Origin: Thermostichus sp. DRC_bins_24 | GTDB taxonomy: Bacteria > Cyanobacteriota > Cyanobacteriia > Thermostichales > Thermostichaceae | Reading direction: 5' to 3' | Length of the DNA stretch: 19,387 nt | Assembly: GCA_039794845.1 (NCBI GenBank) | Contig: JAUQVK010000074.1 | Span: 1 to 19,387, forward strand | Shown: positions 12,045-19,387 of the stretch, in pieces | Layout of the letters: each line of letters starts with the position of its first letter | Numbering within the stretch: the stretch's first letter is position 1 | The notes under the pieces: model-generated | The model's database searches: none | Told to the model about the DNA's origin: nothing | The model's input: the letters and a program-made list of their open reading frames with translations, nothing else | Made by a program: the position numbers and the translations under genes

Positions 12045-12554
12045 CTATTGGTAGGTGTTGCAAGAGTTGCGCAAGTCGTAGCCGGAAACCAAAACCTCAG
12101 CTCGCCGATCCCCAAGGCCGATGTCGCAGCGCAAGGGATCCCCGTTGCTGATCACATAGGTATAGGCTTCGGTCATCCAACGAATGCCCGTCAAATTGAG
12201 ATTGGGAGGCACGACTTCAGGAAGCCGATAGTTGGGGGCCTGCCAAGGGTCGTTCAAATAGCGATCTTCGTGAATACCACCGAATTCAATGTCTGTATAG
12301 TCGGAGGGATAAACGGTAAAATCCATGCGATAAACCTCCGAGCCACGGCTGATGGCGGTCAGGGCCGTTTGGGCTTCGGCAACCTTGGAGCGACGAATGT
12401 GGGTGAGCAGACTGGGAATGGCCACGGCGCTGAGAATGCCGACGATCACGATCACCACCAACAGTTCGATTAGCGTCATACCGTGGGAGGTTGCAGCGGC
12501 TCGCTGAAAGAGCATCTTCTTCAGGTAGGCTTCATGAATGGAAAGCTTCTTCAT
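12045..12554 (-). CDS. Type IV pilin-like protein (prepilin N-terminal cleavage/methylation domain)
   Basis: Basic leader, then G^MTLIELLVVIVIVGILSAVAIP (Gly-1, Glu+5), and two C-terminal Cys. ATG 12554 preferred over 12716. Confidence 0.9.
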   Translation of the reverse strand: MKKLSIHEAYLKKMLFQRAAATSHGMTLIELLVVIVIVGILSAVAIPSLLTHIRRSKVAEAQTALTAISRGSEVYRMDFTVYPSDYTDIEFGGIHEDRYLNDPWQAPNYRLPEVVPPNLNLTGIRWMTEAYTYVISNGDPLRCDIGLGDRRAEVLVSGYDLRNSCNTYQ

Positions 12555-12620
12555 GATAAAGACAACCCCAACTTTTCCGCGATATTTTGCCGTGATAATT
12601 AGCCTTCTTCCTGGGCTTAG

Positions 12621-12627
12621 ATTACCC
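12621..12627 (-). promoter_or_regulatory. Candidate SigF-type promoter element GGGTAAT upstream of the pilin
   Basis: The minus strand reads GAAGGGTAATCT about 70 nt upstream of the pilin ATG. GGGTAA is the known SigF element of cyanobacterial pilA promoters. Confidence 0.45.
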
Positions 12628-12831
12628 TTCAAGACCGTGCTATTCTCTCCGTTAAATTGCGTAGGTTTCCAAATTGAGAGGCATTTGATGGGCGTGAATT
12701 TCATGAAATCGATCACAAATTAAGAAGAGATAAAGCTGAGTTCATAGTGGACAATTTCTGGCTTCATGAATTCCTCATCTGTGAATATTTGTTATGAGGC
12801 TGACTGTAGCAGTTCGGAGTAGATTACCCAA

Positions 12832-13572
12832 ATGGTCGAGGGGTGGGTTTGCCTGATCCTATTTTTGGCCACCTTCACCCATGGGCTGTCGGGTTTTGGC
12901 TTGGCTCTGGTGGCGGTGCCGCTGTTGCAACTGGTGGTTGGCTTACGGGTTGCCACCCCCTTGATCTCTTTGGTCTCGGGCATGACGGTGGTGGCCATGG
13001 CTCTGTGCTACCGACGTGCCTTGGAGTGGCGATCCCTTATACGCCTGGCAGTTGGAGCTACCCTGACGATTCCTTTGGGAGTGTGGGCGGCAGCTCGTTG
13101 GGATGAATGCTGGATAACCCTAATTTTGGGGATCCTGCTGGTGTTGTATGCCGCTTATGGATTGATGGGCTTGCGGTTGCCAGAGTTGGGATCCCCCCAC
13201 TGGGCCTGGTTGTTCGGCGGATTGTCGGGTTTTCTTTCCGGTATGGCCAACATTGGCGGCCCCCCAGCCATTGTTTACGCCAATTGTCGCCGTTGGGATC
13301 CAGAACAGTTTAAGGGCAATTTACAGGGTTTGTTTCTGAGCAATCTGGGCACCGTCATACTCAGCCATACGCTTCAGGGCAATTACACACCGCAAGTGTG
13401 GCAGCTGCTAGGGTTGGGGCTACCGGCGATTATCCTTGGTTTCCTCACCGGGATTTGGCTTGCCCGTTTTGTCAGCCCTGTACAGTTTCGTCGGTTGGTG
13501 CTGGTGTCGTTAGTGGGGATTGGGTTGATGCTCCTGTGGAGAGCCCTCTGGGCAACTTTTGGTGAGGGATGA
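12832..13572 (+). CDS. Sulfite exporter TauE/SafE-family membrane protein
   Basis: THGLSGFGLALVAVPLL and GFLSGMANIGGPP repeats; about 8 hydrophobic segments. Confidence 0.88.
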   Translation: MVEGWVCLILFLATFTHGLSGFGLALVAVPLLQLVVGLRVATPLISLVSGMTVVAMALCYRRALEWRSLIRLAVGATLTIPLGVWAAARWDECWITLILGILLVLYAAYGLMGLRLPELGSPHWAWLFGGLSGFLSGMANIGGPPAIVYANCRRWDPEQFKGNLQGLFLSNLGTVILSHTLQGNYTPQVWQLLGLGLPAIILGFLTGIWLARFVSPVQFRRLVLVSLVGIGLMLLWRALWATFGEG

Positions 13573-13648
13573 GTAAGCCTCAAGTGTGTTGTTGCTCCCC
13601 TCAACCTTTGCAACCTATCGACTCATTCCTCACAAGGCTCACACATCC

Positions 13649-13677
13649 TGGACATTCTTGTAGCAACAGTGTAGTAT
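13649..13677 (+). promoter_or_regulatory. Sigma70-type promoter for the leader region
   Basis: TGGACA (13649-13654), 17-nt spacer, TAGTAT (13672-13677). Confidence 0.55.
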
Positions 13678-13754
13678 GCTAGTCAGTCAGGGATCCTCCG
13701 GGTCGTAGAGGTGTTCCTTCCCTGCCTATCTTTGTTCCGATAGGAGTCAAAACT

Positions 13755-14069
13755 GTGTTTCATCCCGCCGTCCTACTACTGATGCCTTCTGGTCGCCCGT
13801 TTGGGTGGCTGGTGGATTCACTGCGGGCCGGTTTTGGCTTGCTCTATGGGGGTGACCTCTTCGATGTCGCTCAGCCCGCAATTTCTCAAGGCTCCCTGGC
13901 TGCTCTGCTGTCCGGCATTCGCCGTCGTAGTTCTGCAGCATTACCCATTCTCTTGATTGCACCCTCTAAAAACTCCACCCAGCAAGGGAGCCTCTCCGAA
14001 ACCATTCATGGCATGTTCCATAACCACCGAAGCCGTCGGTATAGGGCCAGATTAGCTGTACCCCTCTGA
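13755..14069 (+). CDS. Hypothetical 104-aa protein, candidate leader peptide with Arg-rich C-terminus RSRRYRARLAVPL
   Basis: AGGAG at 13742-13746 ahead of GTG 13755, with a promoter upstream and an intrinsic terminator 20 nt after the stop. An in-frame ATG at 14013 would give an 18-aa alternative. Confidence 0.55.
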   Translation: MFHPAVLLLMPSGRPFGWLVDSLRAGFGLLYGGDLFDVAQPAISQGSLAALLSGIRRRSSAALPILLIAPSKNSTQQGSLSETIHGMFHNHRSRRYRARLAVPL

Positions 14070-14088
14070 GGAAACCTTCCTTCCACCG

Positions 14089-14121
14089 ACCCCGCTTCAA
14101 ACTCCAGAGGCGGGGTTTTTT
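14089..14121 (+). terminator. Rho-independent terminator upstream of the alr0857-family gene
   Basis: Stem accccgcttc (14089-14098) / gaggcggggt (14107-14116), 10 bp with one G-U pair, 8-nt loop, T-run to 14121. Confidence 0.85.
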
Positions 14122-14198
14122 AGTGCATCCATTTCCATTCTTGTCTTCATTCCTGGCCGCTGACTGCTCAATCCATTGCTCATCAAAGGGCTTATCTC

Positions 14199-14561
14199 AT
14201 GTTGAAACTGATCTACGGCGATACCGGAGTGTATCTGGAACGGGTGGCTCAAACCCAAGAGGCTTGGCTGCAGCAACAACTGCACTTGGCGGCCTGCGCA
14301 GGAGAAACTCTGTGGCAAGAAATCGCCATCGGTACTTTGCTGCTGCCGCTTGACTGTGCTGGGCAACTGCCCCCGGAGCTGGATTGGATCCCTTGTGACG
14401 ATGCCTGGCTGGAGGTGGAACTGACGGGCTTGTGGCTGGCCGCCAACTCACAGGTGGATACGGGCACCCTGGCCACCGAGCAGGAACCGGAATGGGAAGC
14501 GTTACTGTATCGCCTTTGGCAAGAACAAGAACGGATGCCACAGCCTCCAGAGCCGGTTTAA
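14199..14561 (+). CDS. Conserved cyanobacterial protein, alr0857 family (function unknown)
   Basis: MLKLIYGDTGVYLERVAQTQEAW...CDDAWLEVELTGLWL...LLYRLWQE matches my recollection of the family pattern (MLKLxY...LERL...EV.L.G.W...LY.LWQE). Confidence 0.75.
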   Translation: MLKLIYGDTGVYLERVAQTQEAWLQQQLHLAACAGETLWQEIAIGTLLLPLDCAGQLPPELDWIPCDDAWLEVELTGLWLAANSQVDTGTLATEQEPEWEALLYRLWQEQERMPQPPEPV

Positions 14562-14588: not shown

Positions 14589-14617
14589 TTGACGAGACTA
14601 TAATACAACTGTATTAT
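14589..14617 (+). promoter_or_regulatory. Near-consensus sigma70 promoter overlapped by a palindromic operator
   Basis: TTGACG (14589-14594), 17 nt, TATTAT (14612-14617). Perfect inverted repeat ATAATACA-ac-TGTATTAT at 14600-14617. Confidence 0.75.
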
Positions 14618-14644
14618 TTATGTAGCATCGAAAGGAGTGAGGTC

Positions 14645-14869
14645 ATGTTGTTAAGCCATTACTACGTCCGGTCAGAGGAGGTGCTGCGCCACAGTTGGCC
14701 TCGCGGTGAAATCGAAGCGGGGCCGAGTCAGTTGACCCAAGCAGCGGAAGATCTGGAACAGGAGATCCTAGCTATGGCTCACCGCATCGAGTTGGAACAG
14801 GCGAAACTGGCCCAAGAGCGCAGTCTACATCGTTGGGAGTACTGGATGCGCCGCCCTGGATTCTTGTGA
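14645..14869 (+). CDS. Small hypothetical protein (74 aa) with a predicted helical/coiled segment
   Basis: AAGGAG at 14632-14637 before ATG 14645, directly behind a strong promoter. Sequence MLLSHYYVRSEEVLRHSW...WEYWMRRPGFL. Confidence 0.75.
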   Translation: MLLSHYYVRSEEVLRHSWPRGEIEAGPSQLTQAAEDLEQEILAMAHRIELEQAKLAQERSLHRWEYWMRRPGFL

Positions 14870-14972: not shown

Positions 14973-17900
14973 TCAAGCCAAATCCCCCGGCCGCCGTAAC
15001 CCTAAAAAGGGATCCCCTGGACTGATTTTGTAACTCGGATAGGTGTTTTCTGCTGCTGCTGTGCTCTCAAGCCAGGTGGGATGCTCATCTGTCCAGAGGG
15101 GATGGCGAAAGATACGCATCTTTTTGGATCTGCCCTGCTTCAGGTAGCCAGTTAGGGATCCCAGTTGAACTGCTGTTTTGTAGCCCAACTGCCCCATCAG
15201 AGTGGGGATGGGAGCCTGGGATCCCTGCATCAGCCGCTGCCAGGGGTTAGTTCGGGATCCCCAAGGGGTTTGCAGGTCTAGGGGGTGCTGGGGATTGGCA
15301 AGCAGGTGAGCCATGTCGAGGGCTAATCGCCAATCCAACAGGCTGTGATAGGACAAGTTGATGTAGTCCCGCAGGCAGGCATTGCAGGAGCTATCGCACT
15401 GGGACTCGTGTCCGGGATCCAGCCACTGAGCTGCTAGGGTTTGGCTTTGGGTGGGATTCAACTGCTGCAAAAGCGTTGGAAAGATGTCTTCTTTGGCTAG
15501 GTGGGCACAGTAGCCAGCCCCGTTTTCCAAGCTATCTGCCAGAAAAGCTTGGCCAATGACTTGATGGGTCACAGGATCGATGGTGGTGCGAAATCCGGCT
15601 TGCAACTCTGAGGGATCGATATCGAGATAGACGGCAGCCGACAGACGCAGCCAAAAAGCTAATGAATACCAAGCGGCCCGGCCCGTGACGGTGGTGGGAT
15701 CGGCAAAAACACCCTGGGGCCACTGCTGGATCCCAACCAAAAGCACATCTGTTTTGCGATGGGCAAGAAGAGCAATGCGATGGGTGGATCCCCGTGTGGT
15801 TAGGCCCTTGTCTTGATTATTTGTATTGTTTGAAGTTCTGAGTTCTGAGGCTACAACATAAGCTCCCTCAATAGATTTGCCATAGTATGAAACTTGAGTA
15901 GAAAAATCAAATCCGCCATCCCCACCATGATCGTTAATAGTGTAAATATCCTCAGATGGTGCTCCGATGATCGCAGCATTAGCGATCATCTTTGGGTTGG
16001 TCAAATGTTCACTCTTAAAACTGATGGTAGGACGAGTAGAGCGGGGTTGCCATTCAAAGTTGCCATCAAAATCTTCGGGGCTAAAGTTGGTCATAAACCC
16101 TTTGGGTTCACGGGCATCGGGGCAGCGGAGGCTTTTTTCTCGATGACAAACGGGACAGGTCTCTTTGGGTGGCTGCTTACCGGGTTGGGGTTTAGGAATG
16201 AGGGTGTGCGGGTAGACGACTGCTTGACAGTTTTCACAGATACCAATGGTTTGGTTGCCCTCTGTCAGGGGTGGGTAAAACCCTGGCTTGCTGATCCCTT
16301 GGGGTAGAAACTCAACGACTCCACAGGCTTTGTGCACAGCTTTATCTTTGACGATTTCCGATCCGGGTGCAAACTGGCTGATGGCTACATCGAGGTTGCG
16401 ATCAATCGTGCCTGTCTCTGGAGGCCAACTCTTGGACCTAGAGGGTTTGCGGGTATACAACAGCCGCACCCGGGTTGGGAAACCAAACATCGGCAGCCAC
16501 CCGGCATTGGCCATGCGCTCACTGAGAGAATCCTGAGTGTAGGTGGGATCCGACACAATTTGGTCAATAATACTAACCAATTCATTCTGAATAAAGTGGA
16601 TCCAATCCCTTGACGGCAGATTTGTCTGAACTTGTAGAGCTTGCAAAATAGCCCTTATTTGACTTTGGCTCTGGGGATCCCCAATCCATTTTGCTAATTC
16701 AGGTTTGATCTGTGGCCAGTCCTTGACTTGACCGAATTCTCCATGGACATTGTCAACTGCAGCAAAGGCATCTTCTTTGAATTCCTCTCGGATAGATATA
16801 AAAGCTTGACGGAGAACTTCTTTGATAAAAACTCGCCGAAAAATAGCTTCTTGCCGCATATCCACATAGGGTGTCGGCGGGGGATCCCCGGTCATTTTTT
16901 CGGGATGCTGGAAGTAGTAATCATCGTGGCTGCGGCCCCGACAGAAGGTGACCGCCAAAGAAAGACTGGATCCCCGGCGCCCGGCGCGCCCCACACGTTG
17001 TTGATAGTTAAACCGACGGGGGGGCATATTCCCTAACATTACTGCCAAGAGGGATCCAATATCTACCCCTGCCTCCATGGTGGTGGTAACACTGAGCAAA
17101 TCAATCCCTAAAACGTGTTGATCCTTTTTTTCCTTGGGCGCGAACCTCTCCTGAAACCAACGCTGCCTTTTGGTACGCTCATTTTTATCTGTTTGCCCAG
17201 TTAACTCAGCCGCATTCATGCGAAAGGGATCCCCGGATTGTTCAACTAGGTAGGAGTAGTAATCAAAGTCTGAGCTGACTTGGCTGGGCTTTAGGCGAGC
17301 ACAGCATTCGGGGCAGTAACCGCCAGCAGGATGTAGGTAAAAGGCATTGCAGCGTTCACAGCGATAACCTGAGATTTGATTGTTTTCGGAATCTTTAAGC
17401 GGTAAGTTTAGGTATAAGAAGTTGGGATTAAGCGCCAGTCCGCTGCTAGATGGAATAAAAGCTTCAGCCTTCTCTAAAATATCTCTGATCTCCTGTTCTT
17501 TAATCTCAAGCTGGCTTAGATATTTTATATATTGTCTAAGGAGCTTATCATCCGTACCAGAAAAGAAAAACTTGCTGTAGTTGTAACGAAAACGAATGCC
17601 AAGCATACGAATGCCGGCATCAATCGCCTGAATAATTTGATCACGGATCCCGTTTTTAACTTTGCAGGTGACCCAACCTCGTCCAAGACTTTCTAAAGTT
17701 CTAACGGAGTGGGGAAAGAGGACGTACATAATCTCAGAGATCAGCTTATCTCTTAGTTTCTTGACATGATCTGCTTGTTCTTTAGCTTGGTTGTTGTCAG
17801 AGTGAGATGTTATGGGCATATTCTGCCATTCAAAGCATTCCCACCAATCATTTTGTCTTTCATTACCAATCCTAAACTTCAAGCTCGAATGCTCTGTACC

Positions 17901-19387
17901 ACCAGGACAAATGCCCAAATTGAGCAATTTTTGAAAGGTTTCATCTCGCAGATAGCTAAGAGGGATCTGACCTGGATAGCGTTTTAGTAAATCTAGCCAC
18001 TCTTCTCGAGCGGAGGCGTTAGCTACGGGTAGTCCTGCCATCCAGCTTTGTGCTTCTGTGACCAATTGAGAGTTTTGCCCACTGAAGCGTTGATAGGCTT
18101 CTAAATCAGCTTTATCATCCTGTTGGGCTTGAATCTGCTCAGCCAGTTGAGGATTGATCTCGGCGATACGCTCTATCAGGCTTGGAGTATTCTTATTCAA
18201 GACCCGTAAATATCCAATTAAGTTCTGCCAATAGGTTGTTAATGACTGCACCAAGAGTAGCCTGGTCATATCCCGATAGTGATCCCGCTCCATACCGGCT
18301 GCGAGTTTGGCGGCATCTTGACGGCTATCGGTAAATACAACCAGCTTGCGCTGAGACTTTCTCAAGTTGTTGCTAAAACTTCCAATCTCCCTAAGCAATC
18401 CACCTGCAATGACCTGGCATGATTTTTGAAAACCTGTGCGATGAATCCTCAAGGGAGTGTCGTAGGGGGGATCCCGCCTCGTATAGTCAGCATCACATCT
18501 TGGGCATTTGCTGGGCAAGGCTCGAATATTATCTGAACGAATATTATCTGAACTTGAAGCATCCACATGATAGAGCCATCCCAGAACCCCATTGGAGTCA
18601 GCAGCACTAGTTTCTTGCAGAACTCCATTGAGAGGATTGAGCTTTGCCCTTTTCCAGCTACGTTTGACTTTATCCTGAGTCCACTCTAGATCAACAGGTT
18701 GAGTTTGCCAGGGGCCATCATTTTTCGGTAAGGGCCAAAATACCCTGTAGTTTTCATATTTCTGCTGCACCACCACCTGATCCGGGATCCCTTCTAGTTC
18801 AGGCTGATCAGGAGTCATTATTATCATTTTCTCGTCTTTGGAAATGTATCCACCCAATAAAACCTCTCCACAAACCTCACAGACAATTAAATCCAACACT
18901 CGGGATCCACAGCTACAGGTTAGCCGACTGGTGGCATGTAGGGATCCAATCGGGACTTTGGCTCCCCCATTTTGACGAAGCTGTTGATTAATACTTTGAT
19001 CCGTACAGTCAGGATTGGAACAAGTCCAGACATTCTGGAGATTATGAAAGAAGTAGTGCCCACGAATGGGCTGTAGAGCGCGATTTTGGTCATCTTTCGC
19101 CATGCCTAAAGCTAATAAATAGCCCCTTAATGCATCCGATACCGTCGGCTGAGAGTCTGTAGCTAAAGTAGGGAAGAAAATGGGGTCAAGCTTTTTAACA
19201 GATGTTGCTCGAATCTGTCCTTGATTGGCAATTTGGCAAGCCTCACGAATGGCATCCCCTGCATGGATCATGTTTAGGGCTTGCCCCAACTGCTGTGCGG
19301 GATCCCCTGCTTGGCTAGTTGGACTAATCTCTTGGGCAAGTTGACGCATAGCAACCTTTACCTTCTCATGTTCTGGATTGGGTGGCT
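14973..19387 (-). CDS. Large SF2 (DEAD/DEAH-box) helicase with C-terminal DUF1998 Zn domain, Druantia DruE-like; 5'-truncated by the window edge
   Basis: Motif IV KLVVFTDSRQDAA, ELTGQT, motif V SVTTTMEAGVDIG, motif VI NYQQRVGRAGRRG, DUF1998 FLADSLENGAGY...CDSSCNACL, and many CxxC pairs. The frame stays open from 19349 to the window end (..PPNPEHEKVKVA-MRQL), so motifs I/II should lie upstream. Confidence 0.9.
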   Translation of the reverse strand, partial: PPNPEHEKVKVAMRQLAQEISPTSQAGDPAQQLGQALNMIHAGDAIREACQIANQGQIRATSVKKLDPIFFPTLATDSQPTVSDALRGYLLALGMAKDDQNRALQPIRGHYFFHNLQNVWTCSNPDCTDQSINQQLRQNGGAKVPIGSLHATSRLTCSCGSRVLDLIVCEVCGEVLLGGYISKDEKMIIMTPDQPELEGIPDQVVVQQKYENYRVFWPLPKNDGPWQTQPVDLEWTQDKVKRSWKRAKLNPLNGVLQETSAADSNGVLGWLYHVDASSSDNIRSDNIRALPSKCPRCDADYTRRDPPYDTPLRIHRTGFQKSCQVIAGGLLREIGSFSNNLRKSQRKLVVFTDSRQDAAKLAAGMERDHYRDMTRLLLVQSLTTYWQNLIGYLRVLNKNTPSLIERIAEINPQLAEQIQAQQDDKADLEAYQRFSGQNSQLVTEAQSWMAGLPVANASAREEWLDLLKRYPGQIPLSYLRDETFQKLLNLGICPGGTEHSSLKFRIGNERQNDWWECFEWQNMPITSHSDNNQAKEQADHVKKLRDKLISEIMYVLFPHSVRTLESLGRGWVTCKVKNGIRDQIIQAIDAGIRMLGIRFRYNYSKFFFSGTDDKLLRQYIKYLSQLEIKEQEIRDILEKAEAFIPSSSGLALNPNFLYLNLPLKDSENNQISGYRCERCNAFYLHPAGGYCPECCARLKPSQVSSDFDYYSYLVEQSGDPFRMNAAELTGQTDKNERTKRQRWFQERFAPKEKKDQHVLGIDLLSVTTTMEAGVDIGSLLAVMLGNMPPRRFNYQQRVGRAGRRGSSLSLAVTFCRGRSHDDYYFQHPEKMTGDPPPTPYVDMRQEAIFRRVFIKEVLRQAFISIREEFKEDAFAAVDNVHGEFGQVKDWPQIKPELAKWIGDPQSQSQIRAILQALQVQTNLPSRDWIHFIQNELVSIIDQIVSDPTYTQDSLSERMANAGWLPMFGFPTRVRLLYTRKPSRSKSWPPETGTIDRNLDVAISQFAPGSEIVKDKAVHKACGVVEFLPQGISKPGFYPPLTEGNQTIGICENCQAVVYPHTLIPKPQPGKQPPKETCPVCHREKSLRCPDAREPKGFMTNFSPEDFDGNFEWQPRSTRPTISFKSEHLTNPKMIANAAIIGAPSEDIYTINDHGGDGGFDFSTQVSYYGKSIEGAYVVASELRTSNNTNNQDKGLTTRGSTHRIALLAHRKTDVLLVGIQQWPQGVFADPTTVTGRAAWYSLAFWLRLSAAVYLDIDPSELQAGFRTTIDPVTHQVIGQAFLADSLENGAGYCAHLAKEDIFPTLLQQLNPTQSQTLAAQWLDPGHESQCDSSCNACLRDYINLSYHSLLDWRLALDMAHLLANPQHPLDLQTPWGSRTNPWQRLMQGSQAPIPTLMGQLGYKTAVQLGSLTGYLKQGRSKKMRIFRHPLWTDEHPTWLESTAAAENTYPSYKISPGDPFLGLRRPGDLA

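Follow-up and report, generated by a model that had tools for sequence, protein, structure and literature searches.

Judged by sequence comparison, a region of the 19,387-nucleotide stretch of Thermostichus sp. DRC_bins_24 DNA analysed here (the window), which comes from the genome of an uncultured hot-spring organism, represents the asr0855-(alr0856)-alr0857 transcription unit of cyanobacteria in a local, diverged form; its leader, likewise diverged, is of a type found in about half of cyanobacteria. The unit is probably controlled in two layers, by TrcR repression at the promoter and by a ribosome-coupled attenuator that would terminate transcription if translation keeps pace and permit read-through if it lags. 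The order of parts is TrcR-type promoter, open frame, conserved box, hairpin P1, stop codon, hairpin P2 and terminator, followed by an HNH gene and/or alr0857. Taken by themselves, none of the features in the window is clearly above chance, and the argument rests on other genomes.

The promoter is located at 13649..13678 of the forward strand, on which all features of the window given below also lie. Its −35 box TGGACA (13649-13654) and −10 box TAGTAT (13672-13677) are 17 nt apart and match 9 of 12 positions (13649-13677) in a site scan of the window, which found two promoter-like sites (1.5 ± 1.5 expected by chance). Two 9-nt direct repeats with a spacing of 2 nt, TGTAGCAAC (13659-13667) and TGTAGTATG (13670-13678), overlap the −10 box. 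They match the reverse complement of the TrcR motif published in PMC10272220 at 14 of 18 positions, and their layout agrees with that of the TrcR-type operators described in PMC8421152. The segment 13649-13678 is a TrcR-type operator and promoter with predicted binding of TrcR, and a TrcR-type box is present upstream of the leader in other lineages, too. The repressor has a homologue in the same genome (G000:C65:459-791, minus strand, E 8.7e-42), encoded with its own repeat box on a separate contig and unlinked to the leader. Since the promoter is a TrcR-box promoter, control would have two layers. The transcript is predicted to start about 7 nt past the −10 box, which gives a 5′ UTR from 13684 to 13754 with 66% identity to each of two congeners.

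A Shine-Dalgarno sequence, AGGAG (13742-13746), is located 8 nt upstream of a GTG start codon, which opens a leader ORF of 104 codons (13755..14069) with a TGA stop codon at 14067-14069. Between this ORF and the next gene, an intrinsic terminator is predicted at 14088..14121. Its stem (14088-14117) consists of 11 pairs, of which 7 are G-C, with an 8-nt loop, and the terminator ends in six T (14116-14121), the first two of which are counted in the stem by the scan. Four terminator-like sites were detected in the window, compared with 3.3 ± 1.9 expected.

The end of the leader (14025..14123) is a full-length match to covariance model R1 (59.7 bits, E 1.5e-9) and its sole copy in the genome. It comprises box, P1, stop codon, P2 and terminator and is the best-conserved segment within the genus, with 94% and 90% identity among three species, whereas the remainder of the ORF has 85% and 70%. 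The family box (G)AAGCGGG, the AGCGGG of which mimics the 3′ arm of the terminator, has a form of its own in this genus, GAAGCCGUCGGU (14029..14040), which serves as 5′ strand of the predicted antiterminator. The 3′ strand is ACCGACCCCGCUUC (14085..14098), of which 14088-14098 is common to the 5′ arm of the terminator. GAAGC and GUCGGU of the box, separated by one C, are complementary to ACCGAC and GCUUC of the 3′ strand, separated by CCC. The box is the best duplex partner of 14085-14098 in the whole leader (−15.4 kcal/mol), and the pairing is part of the minimum-energy fold of a transcript ending before the 3′ arm of the terminator. When the 397-nt leader was shuffled, 84 of 300 sequences gave a duplex of this quality; when its last 66 nt were shuffled, 21 of 1000 did.

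Hairpin P1 (14038..14062; GGUAUAG pairing with CUGUACC, 11-nt loop) is homologous to the P1 of the family, and its base overlaps the extended antiterminator in the genus of the window. The pair U14040-A14060 in P1 is U-G in both congeners; in the family alignment, P1 pair 20-50 is AU in 31 sequences, GC in 13, GU in 3 and UA and UG in one each. In hairpin P2 (14068..14082) GAGGAA pairs with UUCCUU, and the final two bases of the stop codon belong to its 5′ arm. Most family members have a P2 hairpin at the same place, with a sequence that varies. The earlier note, made from the letters of this DNA, had listed the promoter at 13649-13677, the ribosome binding site and GTG leader ORF, a terminator at 14089-14121 and the pairing of 14029-14040 with 14085-14098. 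All these parts are present as listed, while the two TrcR-type repeats and the hairpins P1 and P2 on either side of the stop codon had been missed.

In total, 68 of 151 genomes of the cyanobacterial class, representing 47 of 80 genera, contain a match to the covariance model. The link to the downstream genes was found in both search directions. With alr0857 proteins as the starting point, upstream DNA was available for 29 loci, of which 26 carry the module on the same strand; with only the RNA pattern as the starting point, alr0857 is located downstream in 27 of 34 cyanobacterial loci and an HNH gene in 18. Of the 80 loci of this pattern scan, for which about 55 chance matches are expected by our own estimate, the 36 with cyanobacterial or sister-group titles were considered and the 44 from other phyla were left out. 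Two loci were dropped by eye, L043 due to its resemblance to a tRNA end followed by a terminator and L077 because the hairpins are missing. The module is present in the Nostocales loci in which a divergent TrcR gene is followed by leader, HNH gene and alr0857. In 15 of the 18 loci with an HNH gene, its frame, counted from the first possible start codon, opens 2-37 nt past the terminator stem, so that the downstream genes seem to depend on read-through. The genus of the window has lost the HNH gene, carries a diverged box (AGCCGU for AGCGGG) and has re-registered the antiterminator. Since several other lineages also have no HNH gene, it is not obligatory between leader and alr0857.

None of the families of Rfam 15 matched the window at the gathering threshold, the region 13550-14250 gave nothing credible at E values up to 10, and in 20 related loci only tRNAs were reported. 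RNase P RNA, tmRNA, 6S RNA and known sRNAs were rejected, as Rfam and ARAGORN found none of them. The HNH gene suggested a HEARO/IscB omega-RNA, which was discarded because the 20 loci gave no Rfam match and the HNH proteins are only about 140-200 residues long. A scan of genome and metagenome contigs for exact words of the genus-specific 3′ segment, from which near relatives may be left out, gave no match.

Folded up to the 3′ arm of the terminator, all 51 non-redundant copies form a three-way junction closed by the antiterminator stem, the 6-bp core of which is present in every sequence (contiguous 5-10 bp). These truncated folds and the pairing in the window agree with the claim of the earlier note that antiterminator and terminator exclude each other, although the covariation of the antiterminator is weak. 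P1 and terminator together are 90.4% paired in the alignment, compared with 42-51% if the partners are slid, and their covariation score is 0.191, compared with 0.142 ± 0.007 for shuffled alignments (none of 500 as high). The arms of the terminator are conserved in the family, with 93% of cells paired. Covariation, which the earlier note had proposed to look for in both helices, is thus seen for P1 and terminator together, but hardly for the antiterminator, whose strands are almost invariant and therefore covary little. Only 4 G-C swaps occur at antiterminator pair 6-111 among the 51 sequences, and locus-specific covariation is absent, with 7.28 bp for strands of the same locus and 7.04 bp across loci. 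As 28 of the 51 aligned rows were found by a pattern requiring box and terminator arms, their invariance is partly given by construction. The stop codon of 38 of 51 copies lies between P1 and P2 in the junction or else within the 5′ arm of P2.

The fold of the full-length module is 5-20 kcal/mol (typically 9-17) lower than that of the truncated one, the terminator hairpin alone being worth 15-26 kcal/mol. The terminator wins at equilibrium, and the junction may thus need a stabilising factor. This would make sense if the junction were a riboswitch-like or protein-binding element, in which the antiterminator stem is stabilised or opened by a small molecule, a tRNA or a protein (candidates are a ribosomal factor, TrcR, alr0857 and the HNH protein) and the open frame is secondary, e.g., for protecting or delivering the RNA. 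The compact fold of a closing stem and two hairpins, with a median z-score of −3.5 and 43 of 51 copies below −2, resembles aptamers in which one strand is common to the closing stem and a terminator, and the A after the box and the AUA before the stop codon are conserved junction nucleotides. We nevertheless consider such an element unlikely, as it leaves unexplained a frame of 50-182 codons that is free of peptide constraint and open in 56 of 58 modules, as well as the TAG, TAA or TGA at the junction. Furthermore, no Rfam family matches, and the P1 loops and all of P2 vary in sequence and length, which leaves few candidate ligand contacts.

The substitution pattern of the leader is that of a frame which is kept open irrespective of its peptide. 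Across the three congeneric species the start codon is GTG, GTG and ATG, and indels, of 12 and 3 nt, preserve the frame. The three codon positions differ to a similar extent, with 15/11/17, 35/21/33 and 24/24/26 for the pairs within the genus and 1312/1164/1317 in Nostocales, where 2148 non-synonymous and 588 synonymous changes were counted over pairs. In the same comparison within the genus, the alr0857-family gene has 17/15/47, 13/10/43 and 8/6/15 differences, i.e., about 2- to 4-fold more changes at the third position than at the first or second, a bias that the leader does not have. Gap runs among the Nostocales leaders are multiples of three in 96 of 96 pairwise cases, which trace back to about four independent events. 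Upstream of the box, its frame has 60 or more open codons in 56 of 58 modules, with a median open length of 80.5 codons compared with 7 and 12 in the other frames, and extends over 50-182 codons from the first start codon. Stop codons are found at the same place across the modules, with TAG in 31, TAA in 19 and TGA in 8. The frame is kept open, although its codon positions change to an equal extent.

No Pfam or NCBIfam family was assigned to the product of the leader ORF, and between orders the peptides have no similarity outside a C-terminal motif, which results from translating box and P1 (AGC, or its variant GGC, is the serine codon in every case). Neither a conserved peptide nor a codon run of an amino-acid-specific attenuator was found between lineages. 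A conventional small protein was rejected for the leader ORF because of the flat substitutions and the missing family. We infer that the frame is translated and that its openness and the position of its stop codon matter, while its amino-acid sequence does not. The earlier note had likened the layout to translation-sensing attenuators such as B. subtilis bmrB-bmrCD and Listeria rli53-lmo0919; 104 codons without a conserved peptide are unlike short antibiotic-sensing leaders.

That the ORF encodes a real small protein of the asr0855 type, with the hairpin as a constitutive leaky terminator that sets the ratio of leader to downstream transcripts without any switch, is less probable still than a ligand- or protein-binding element. 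In Anabaena, the annotation of asr0855 is that of a hypothetical protein, and deletion of trcR induces it together with alr0856 and alr0857 to a similar extent (PMC10272220); peptide segments also look alike within Nostocales. The equal change of codon positions and the excess of non-synonymous over synonymous changes speak against a protein, as do the lack of similarity between orders beyond a C-terminal motif that is itself translated box and P1, and the covariation of P1 as RNA. A fixed terminator would also need no conserved mimic of its own 3′ arm.

The predicted target of the control, the alr0857-family gene (14199..14561, 120 aa), matches NF045647 alr0857_fam with 83.7 bits (cut-off 75) and has a substitution pattern of the coding type. 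It begins after a spacer of 77 nt past the terminator, and the scan found no promoter-like site in 14122-14198, as the earlier note had assumed in seeing no promoter of its own. The AlphaFold model of the protein has a pLDDT of 95.2; a Foldseek search against the PDB gave no match at E values up to 0.001, and the best Z in a wide VIA-align comparison was 3.4, which is neither a functional lead nor proof of a new fold.

It is very improbable that promoter to terminator form a stand-alone gene of a trans-acting non-coding RNA, with alr0857 transcribed from its own promoter in 14122-14198: conservation within the genus does begin at the promoter and stop at the terminator, the 77-nt spacer could hide an unrecognised promoter and attenuator-derived trans-acting RNAs such as rnTrpL are described elsewhere, but the scan found no promoter-like site in the spacer, whose identity between species is only 56%, the distance from the terminator stem to the opening of the next gene is 2-37 nt in 15 of 18 loci of other lineages, the module is tightly linked to alr0857/HNH in both search directions, and the open frame would be unexplained.

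A second TrcR-like promoter with an ORF is located further downstream (14589..14869; TTGACG-17-TATTAT). Its repeats TGTATTATT (14610-14618) and TGTAGCATC (14621-14629) agree with the TrcR motif at 15 of 18 positions. The ORF of 74 codons (14645..14869) has tblastn matches in the same three species only, and its roughly 2-fold third-position bias suggests a real gene. It was rejected as TrcR, as it has no similarity to this protein, the actual homologue of which is on another contig.

The anatomy of the leader, its conservation, the maintenance of its open frame and the covariation of P1 are seen directly in the genomes compared. Termination and read-through are predicted from them as follows. 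By homology to published work, TrcR would sit on the two direct repeats over the −10 box and let go upon impaired translation. The transcript would then begin with the long reading frame, and once the polymerase has passed it, the RNA could fold into the three-way junction, in which the antiterminator is formed by the box upstream of P1 and the 5′ arm of the terminator. A lead ribosome following closely would unwind box and P1 and halt on the codon between P1 and P2. Here it would occupy both hairpins and block the junction, so that the terminator could fold and the transcript would end near 14121. With ribosomes lagging or missing, as under elongation inhibitors, starvation or ribosome damage, the junction would close first and the polymerase would read through into alr0857, or HNH-alr0857 in other lineages. 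The direction of the switch would accordingly be from termination under rapid translation to expression under slow translation.

The core of the earlier note, a translated leader with mutually exclusive antiterminator and terminator gating alr0857, is thus supported by comparison across genomes. It had further proposed that a ribosome reaching the 3′ end of the leader masks 14029-14040. Such a ribosome would indeed permit termination, but the stop codon is located 27-38 nt downstream of the box (and 15-18 nt upstream of the 3′ strand of the antiterminator), which leaves the box uncovered. A ribosome at the stop codon would occupy P1 and P2 and in this way keep the junction from closing.

More tentatively, the long unconstrained frame may act in cis as a speedometer for the ribosome, sensing the global rate of translation elongation, with the junction as readout. 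The gap between polymerase and first ribosome would add up over 50-180 codons. To our knowledge, transcription-translation coupling is not established for cyanobacteria. If this possibility holds, about half of cyanobacteria would have conserved the sensor, which would control an HNH nuclease and alr0857, perhaps also the spare tRNA arrays that are located downstream on the same strand in some lineages, and would be part of the connection still missing between translational stress and the TrcR response.

Rho, the termination factor, is as far as we know absent from cyanobacteria, and documented attenuators are few in this phylum. The design would be unusual for an attenuator, due to the very long frame without peptide constraint and the stop codon within a three-way junction. 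Hypothetical proteins of the asr0855 type would be better annotated as leader ORFs of an RNA element that is absent from Rfam. In cyanobacteria with impaired translation, spare tRNAs, RNA-repair genes and asr0855-alr0857 are switched on; how the impairment is sensed is left open by both studies (PMC10272220, PMC8421152), and according to Wang et al. 2023 (PMC10272220) it is not yet understood by what signalling TrcR is controlled. A second and direct layer of sensing would be provided by a conserved leader in which read-through depends on the progress of the ribosome.

The closest known system is the unit of Anabaena sp. PCC 7120, compared here by its published description. It has the same downstream family (NF045647) and the same kind of promoter, with 9-nt repeats over the −10 box (PMC10272220, PMC8421152); a TrcR homologue is likewise found in the genome of the window, and the leader ORF sits where asr0855 is annotated. 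Unlike this unit, the genus of the window has no HNH gene, an unlinked trcR and a diverged box. PMC10272220 already places asr0855-alr0856-alr0857 in the TrcR translational-stress regulon and reports upregulation of asr0855 and alr0857 under chloramphenicol, so that the role of alr0857 as a translation-stress gene, suggested in the earlier note, was already published for Anabaena. Upon deletion of trcR, asr0855, alr0856 and alr0857 increased 9.2-, 7.2- and 8.5-fold, respectively (PMC10272220). The similar rise of leader and downstream genes indicates no change of read-through, but in cells that were unstressed. The words terminator and leader are absent from the main texts of PMC10272220 and PMC8421152, which therefore do not describe the attenuator layer; one supplementary file of PMC8421152, possibly incomplete, has no mention of asr0855, alr0856, alr0857 or all0854. 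In the literature, no description of an attenuator before alr0857 was found.

Bacillus subtilis bmrB-bmrCD (Reilman et al. 2014, PMC4191407), as reported there, also combines a promoter-level regulator with attenuation. Its translated leader is fairly long (53 codons) and has no amino-acid-specific control codons, it forms alternative terminator and antiterminator folds, and the system is induced by several ribosome-targeting antibiotics, with slower leader translation favouring the antiterminator. In bmrB, the coding region itself contains terminator and alternative folds, whereas the leaders of the family described here stop 18-42 nt before the terminator (in the window, at 14069 with the terminator stem from 14088). 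The frames (53 and 50-182 codons) have no sequence homology, and the target of bmrB is a transporter (PMC4191407), that predicted for the present leader an HNH/alr0857 operon.

The enterobacterial trp, his, leu and thr attenuators follow the logic proposed here, in which a ribosome at the leader stop allows the terminator and one held upstream allows read-through. They differ from the present module, which has no regulatory codon runs or conserved peptide, a leader 5-10 times longer and an antiterminator that closes a three-way junction; its presumed signal is the overall rate of translation instead of one charged tRNA. In ON-type transcriptional riboswitches with a three-way junction, such as the pbuE adenine riboswitch, one strand serves both the stem that closes the two hairpins, as its 3′ strand, and the terminator, as its 5′ arm, and the junction must form first for read-through. 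In contrast to these, the module implies no ligand, has no Rfam match and carries a reading frame that passes the 5′ strand and P1 before it ends within the junction.

The putative attenuator of the window lies on the forward strand. It starts with a promoter-like sequence (TGGACA-17-TAGTAT, 13649-13677), followed by a Shine-Dalgarno sequence (AGGAG) located 8 nt before a GTG start codon at 13755, a leader ORF of 104 codons ending with a TGA stop codon at 14067-14069, a terminator-like hairpin (14088-14117) and, after a gap of 77 nt, an alr0857-family gene of 120 codons (14199-14561; NCBIfam NF045647, 83.7 bits, cut-off 75). The hairpin runs into six T residues at 14116-14121, the first two of which are counted within the stem. 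All features from which the earlier note had proposed a ribosome-coupled attenuator are present in the sequence, and the complementarity it described between 14029-14040 and 14085-14098 is genuine (-15.4 kcal/mol), no better partner for this segment being found anywhere in the leader. Shuffling the whole leader gave a duplex of equal quality in 84 of 300 trials, and shuffling only the last 66 nt did so in 21 of 1000. The counts of promoter-like and terminator-like sites in the window equal those of shuffled sequences, and no known RNA was detected in it using Rfam and ARAGORN. By themselves, none of the window features goes beyond chance. A 44-nt stretch directly upstream of the promoter (13606-13649) recurs with 89% identity on a different contig of this genome (G000:C72:10446-10489) and may be a short dispersed repeat.

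Within the genus, the block 13648-14126 was found again in only two of 11 other species (84% and 76% identity), where it also precedes alr0857. The upstream neighbours in the window, which encode a type IV pilin-like protein bearing an N-terminal methylation motif (12045-12716, reverse strand) and a TauE/SafE family exporter (12832-13572, forward strand), differ from those in both congeners, so that conservation starts exactly at the promoter. The best conserved leader segment among the three species comprises the final 99 nt (14025-14123), with identities of 94% and 90% to the congeners G004 and G008 respectively, compared to 85% and 70% for the remainder of the leader ORF, 66% each for the 5′ untranslated region and 56% each for the spacer to alr0857. 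All three species have an open leader frame (start codons GTG, GTG and ATG), two indels of 12 nt and 3 nt are both in frame, and the TGA stop codon is changed to TAA in one species. However, the leader differences are spread evenly over the codon positions (15/11/17, 35/21/33 and 24/24/26), whereas alr0857 displays the usual third-position excess in the same species (17/15/47, 13/10/43 and 8/6/15). This comparison indicates that in the genus the frame is maintained and the peptide is not.

The conserved segment represents a module that is common upstream of alr0857 genes, which were found in 30 of 61 related genomes. It consists of the box (G)AAGCGGG forming the 5′ strand of the antiterminator (14029-14040 in the window), a hairpin P1 immediately 3′ of the box (GGUACAG and CUGUACC as consensus arms around a loop), a stop codon, a further hairpin P2 whose sequence is free, and a terminator whose arms are near-identical everywhere (CCCCCGCUUCU, loop, AGAAGCGGGGG, then U's). 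Of the 29 loci having upstream DNA, 26 carry the module ahead of alr0857 in the same orientation. This count leaves aside L039, which has none; the module was undetected in L028, L032 and L033. The distance to alr0857 is 50-200 nt, or about 600-900 nt with an intervening gene of 170-210 codons. An exact-pattern scan with one genome per species matched at least 120 stretches, and 80 loci were retrieved. Among these, 36 had cyanobacterial or sister-group titles and 44 from other phyla were left out; L043 and L077 were removed by eye. Among the matches listed, alr0857 is located downstream in 27 of the 34 remaining loci and 18 have a gene for a small HNH endonuclease behind the terminator; four have the HNH gene only and three have neither within 1.5 kb. 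A covariance model built on P1 and the terminator matches 14025-14123 over its full length (59.7 bits, E = 1.5e-9), the sole copy in this genome, and identified the module in 68 of 151 sampled genomes of the class (47 of 80 genera), five copies being the most in any one genome. Eight of 11 retrieved extra copies could be located by a simple pattern for inspection, five preceding alr0857, one an HNH gene and two other genes. The few copies ahead of other genes (L048, L165, L166) include one for which an RtcB-family gene with an intein begins 1.1 kb further on, one ahead of a threo-3-hydroxy-aspartate ammonia-lyase-like gene, and others preceding unknown small ORFs.

For the structural analysis, 51 non-redundant modules were aligned. 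P1 and the terminator are paired to 90.4%, versus 42-51% with the partners slid by one to three columns, and their covariation score of 0.191 exceeds that of shuffles (0.142 ± 0.007; none of 500 as high). The P1 pair of columns 20-50, for example, is AU in 31, GC in 13, GU in three, UA in one and UG in one module. The six-pair core of the antiterminator, formed by the box and the terminator 5′ arm, is near-invariant (AU 50, GC 51, CG 51, GC 49, GC 51 and GC 41 of 51) in this set, 28 rows of which came from a pattern in which AGCGG and both terminator arms were mandatory. The box of the 24 protein-anchored rows reads AGCGG (18), GGCGG (3) or AGCCG (3), the last in the genus of the window. One to four more pairs follow the core (the next is AU in 31, GC in four and GU in four); contiguous pairing covers 5-10 bp with a median of 7. 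Strands of the same locus do not pair over a greater length than strands of different loci (7.28 versus 7.04 bp). For the near-invariant antiterminator, the support hence comes from conservation and mimicry of the terminator 3′ arm, not from covariation. In the window, AGCGGG is changed to AGCCGU and the helix is retained through a new GUCGGU/ACCGAC pairing beside GAAGC/GCUUC; in the predicted fold, the lengthened helix reaches into the base of P1. In transcripts truncated immediately ahead of the terminator 3′ arm, the 5′ arm pairs with the box in all 51 minimum-energy folds, and 42 of these are junctions with at least two inner helices. In 38 of 51 modules the stop codon is placed either in the P1/P2 junction (17) or on the P2 5′ arm (21), and in three it falls within P1. 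Compared to shuffles, the median z of the junction fold energy is -3.5, and 43 of 51 values are below -2.

The leader frame was defined in 58 modules by reading AGC of the box as a codon. Upstream of the box it runs for 60 or more codons without a stop in 56 of them (median 80.5), the exceptions being L048 (53 codons) and L079 (9 codons), compared to medians of 7 and 12 codons and four modules each with at least 60 codons for the other two frames. Many of the carrier genomes are AT-rich, a composition in which chance does not produce frames of this length. The frame begins no more than a few tens of bases from the -10 box and, in 55 of 58 modules, ends 27-51 nt past the box start and 18-42 nt before the terminator, with TAG (31), TAA (19) and TGA (8) as stop codons. 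In Nostocales leaders, 96 of 96 pairwise gap runs, deriving from about four independent internal events (3, 6, 6 and 24 nt), are divisible by three. Between orders, the only common residues of the peptides are those resulting from the box and P1 (apparent motif SGRYR..AVP), and the Nostocales substitutions are flat by codon position (1312/1164/1317), with 2148 non-synonymous and 588 synonymous codon differences. The long open frame points to translation, but its changes give no sign of selection as a protein.

In Anabaena, all0854 (trcR) is described as a ribbon-helix-helix repressor that has a binding motif across the -10 box and is lost under elongation inhibitors; deletion of trcR increased asr0855 9.2-fold, alr0856 (HNH endonuclease) 7.2-fold and alr0857 8.5-fold, and upregulation under chloramphenicol is reported for asr0855 and alr0857 (Wang et al., 2023, PMC10272220). 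For Anabaena, this bears out the earlier suggestion that alr0857 is a translation-stress gene. The co-regulated genes are reported to carry a pair of 9-nt direct repeats with a spacing of 2-3 nt across the -10 box and start site (Santamaria-Gomez et al., 2021, PMC8421152). The window promoter contains repeats of exactly this type (TGTAGCAAC, AG, TGTAGTATG), a putative operator by sequence match, as 14 of 18 positions agree with the TrcR motif. A TrcR-type box also lies ahead of the leader in other lineages, and in many loci a divergent trcR homologue adjoins it. The homologue of this genome (E = 8.7e-42) is located on another contig (G000:C65 459-791, minus strand; locus L162, G000:C65:1-2279) and carries a repeat box of its own, TGTATTACT-CC-TGTAGTATA. 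Divergent from this homologue are an ORF (900-1238) and a long membrane-protein ORF, which by eye resemble an ArsR-type regulator and a MATE-type exporter, respectively. The tRNA genes found on the same strand downstream of alr0857 in seven of 20 loci by an Rfam scan (arrays in L010, L018, L023, L026 and L019, single tRNAs in L021 and L013) place the leader-HNH-alr0857 unit often just upstream of long tRNA arrays, which agrees with the HNH gene conserved upstream of such arrays described in PMC8421152. The words "terminator" and "leader" are absent from the main text of both articles, and no paper describing an attenuator at asr0855/alr0857 in cyanobacteria was found within the literature collection searched. 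The attenuator layer hence appears undescribed in print, as the earlier note had supposed, although the unit itself belongs to a published stress regulon.

The alr0857 protein of the window was modeled by AlphaFold with very high confidence (pLDDT 95.2, pTM 0.84) and contains strands and three helices; no solved structural relative was found by Foldseek at E ≤ 0.001, and the best Z of a wide VIA-align search was 3.4. The alr0857 gene is followed by a 74-codon ORF with its own promoter and TrcR-like direct repeats (14589-14869, forward strand; TrcR motif matched at 15 of 18 positions), found only in the same three species. Its differences per codon position (7/9/18, 18/19/33 and 15/14/25) suggest that it changes as a genuine coding gene would; its product could be assigned to no family of Pfam, NCBIfam or PADLOC. 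Convergent with it lies a large helicase gene (14973-19387, reverse strand) whose product matches PADLOC PDLC00051 (DruE of the Druantia anti-phage system; 1121.8 bits). The match covers profile positions 414-1786 of 1829, the first approximately 400 codons lying past the window end.

The order of transcription is box, P1, stop codon, P2 and terminator 5′ arm. Without a ribosome, the truncated folds predict that the junction closes before the terminator 3′ arm is made. A ribosome tight behind the polymerase would melt the box and P1 and then halt between P1 and P2, occupying both hairpins and leaving the terminator 5′ arm free for its 3′ partner. We infer that good translation would lead to termination and impaired translation to read-through, a direction that agrees with the published stress induction of the unit. 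The HNH frame opens, if the first possible start codon is used, at most 37 nt past the terminator stem in 15 of 18 loci; this distance leaves little room for a promoter of its own, so that downstream expression seems to result from read-through. Against such coupling, the terminator is far more stable than the junction in the predicted folds, and a ribosome at the stop codon would leave the box uncovered, so that masking of 14029-14040 by a ribosome at the leader 3′ end, as originally suggested, would not hold. The compact junction could equally well serve as a binding site for a ligand or protein. In many loci (e.g., L010, L012, L021 and L047) the HNH frame begins 2-37 nt after the terminator stem. 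The G-rich terminator 3′ arm may double as, or hide, the HNH ribosome-binding site, and this closeness hints at a translational layer upon the same switch.

The reading as a ribosome-coupled attenuator is upheld in substance, with the corrections that the gene belongs to a published stress regulon, that the RNA is predicted to form a conserved three-way junction and that the long leader has no conserved peptide. The putative attenuator layer is widespread in cyanobacteria and directly testable. In its anatomy, the leader agrees with ribosome-coupled attenuators such as bmrB-bmrCD of B. subtilis, for which a promoter-level regulator combined with a translated leader lacking control codons is described, slowed leader translation favouring the antiterminator (PMC4191407).
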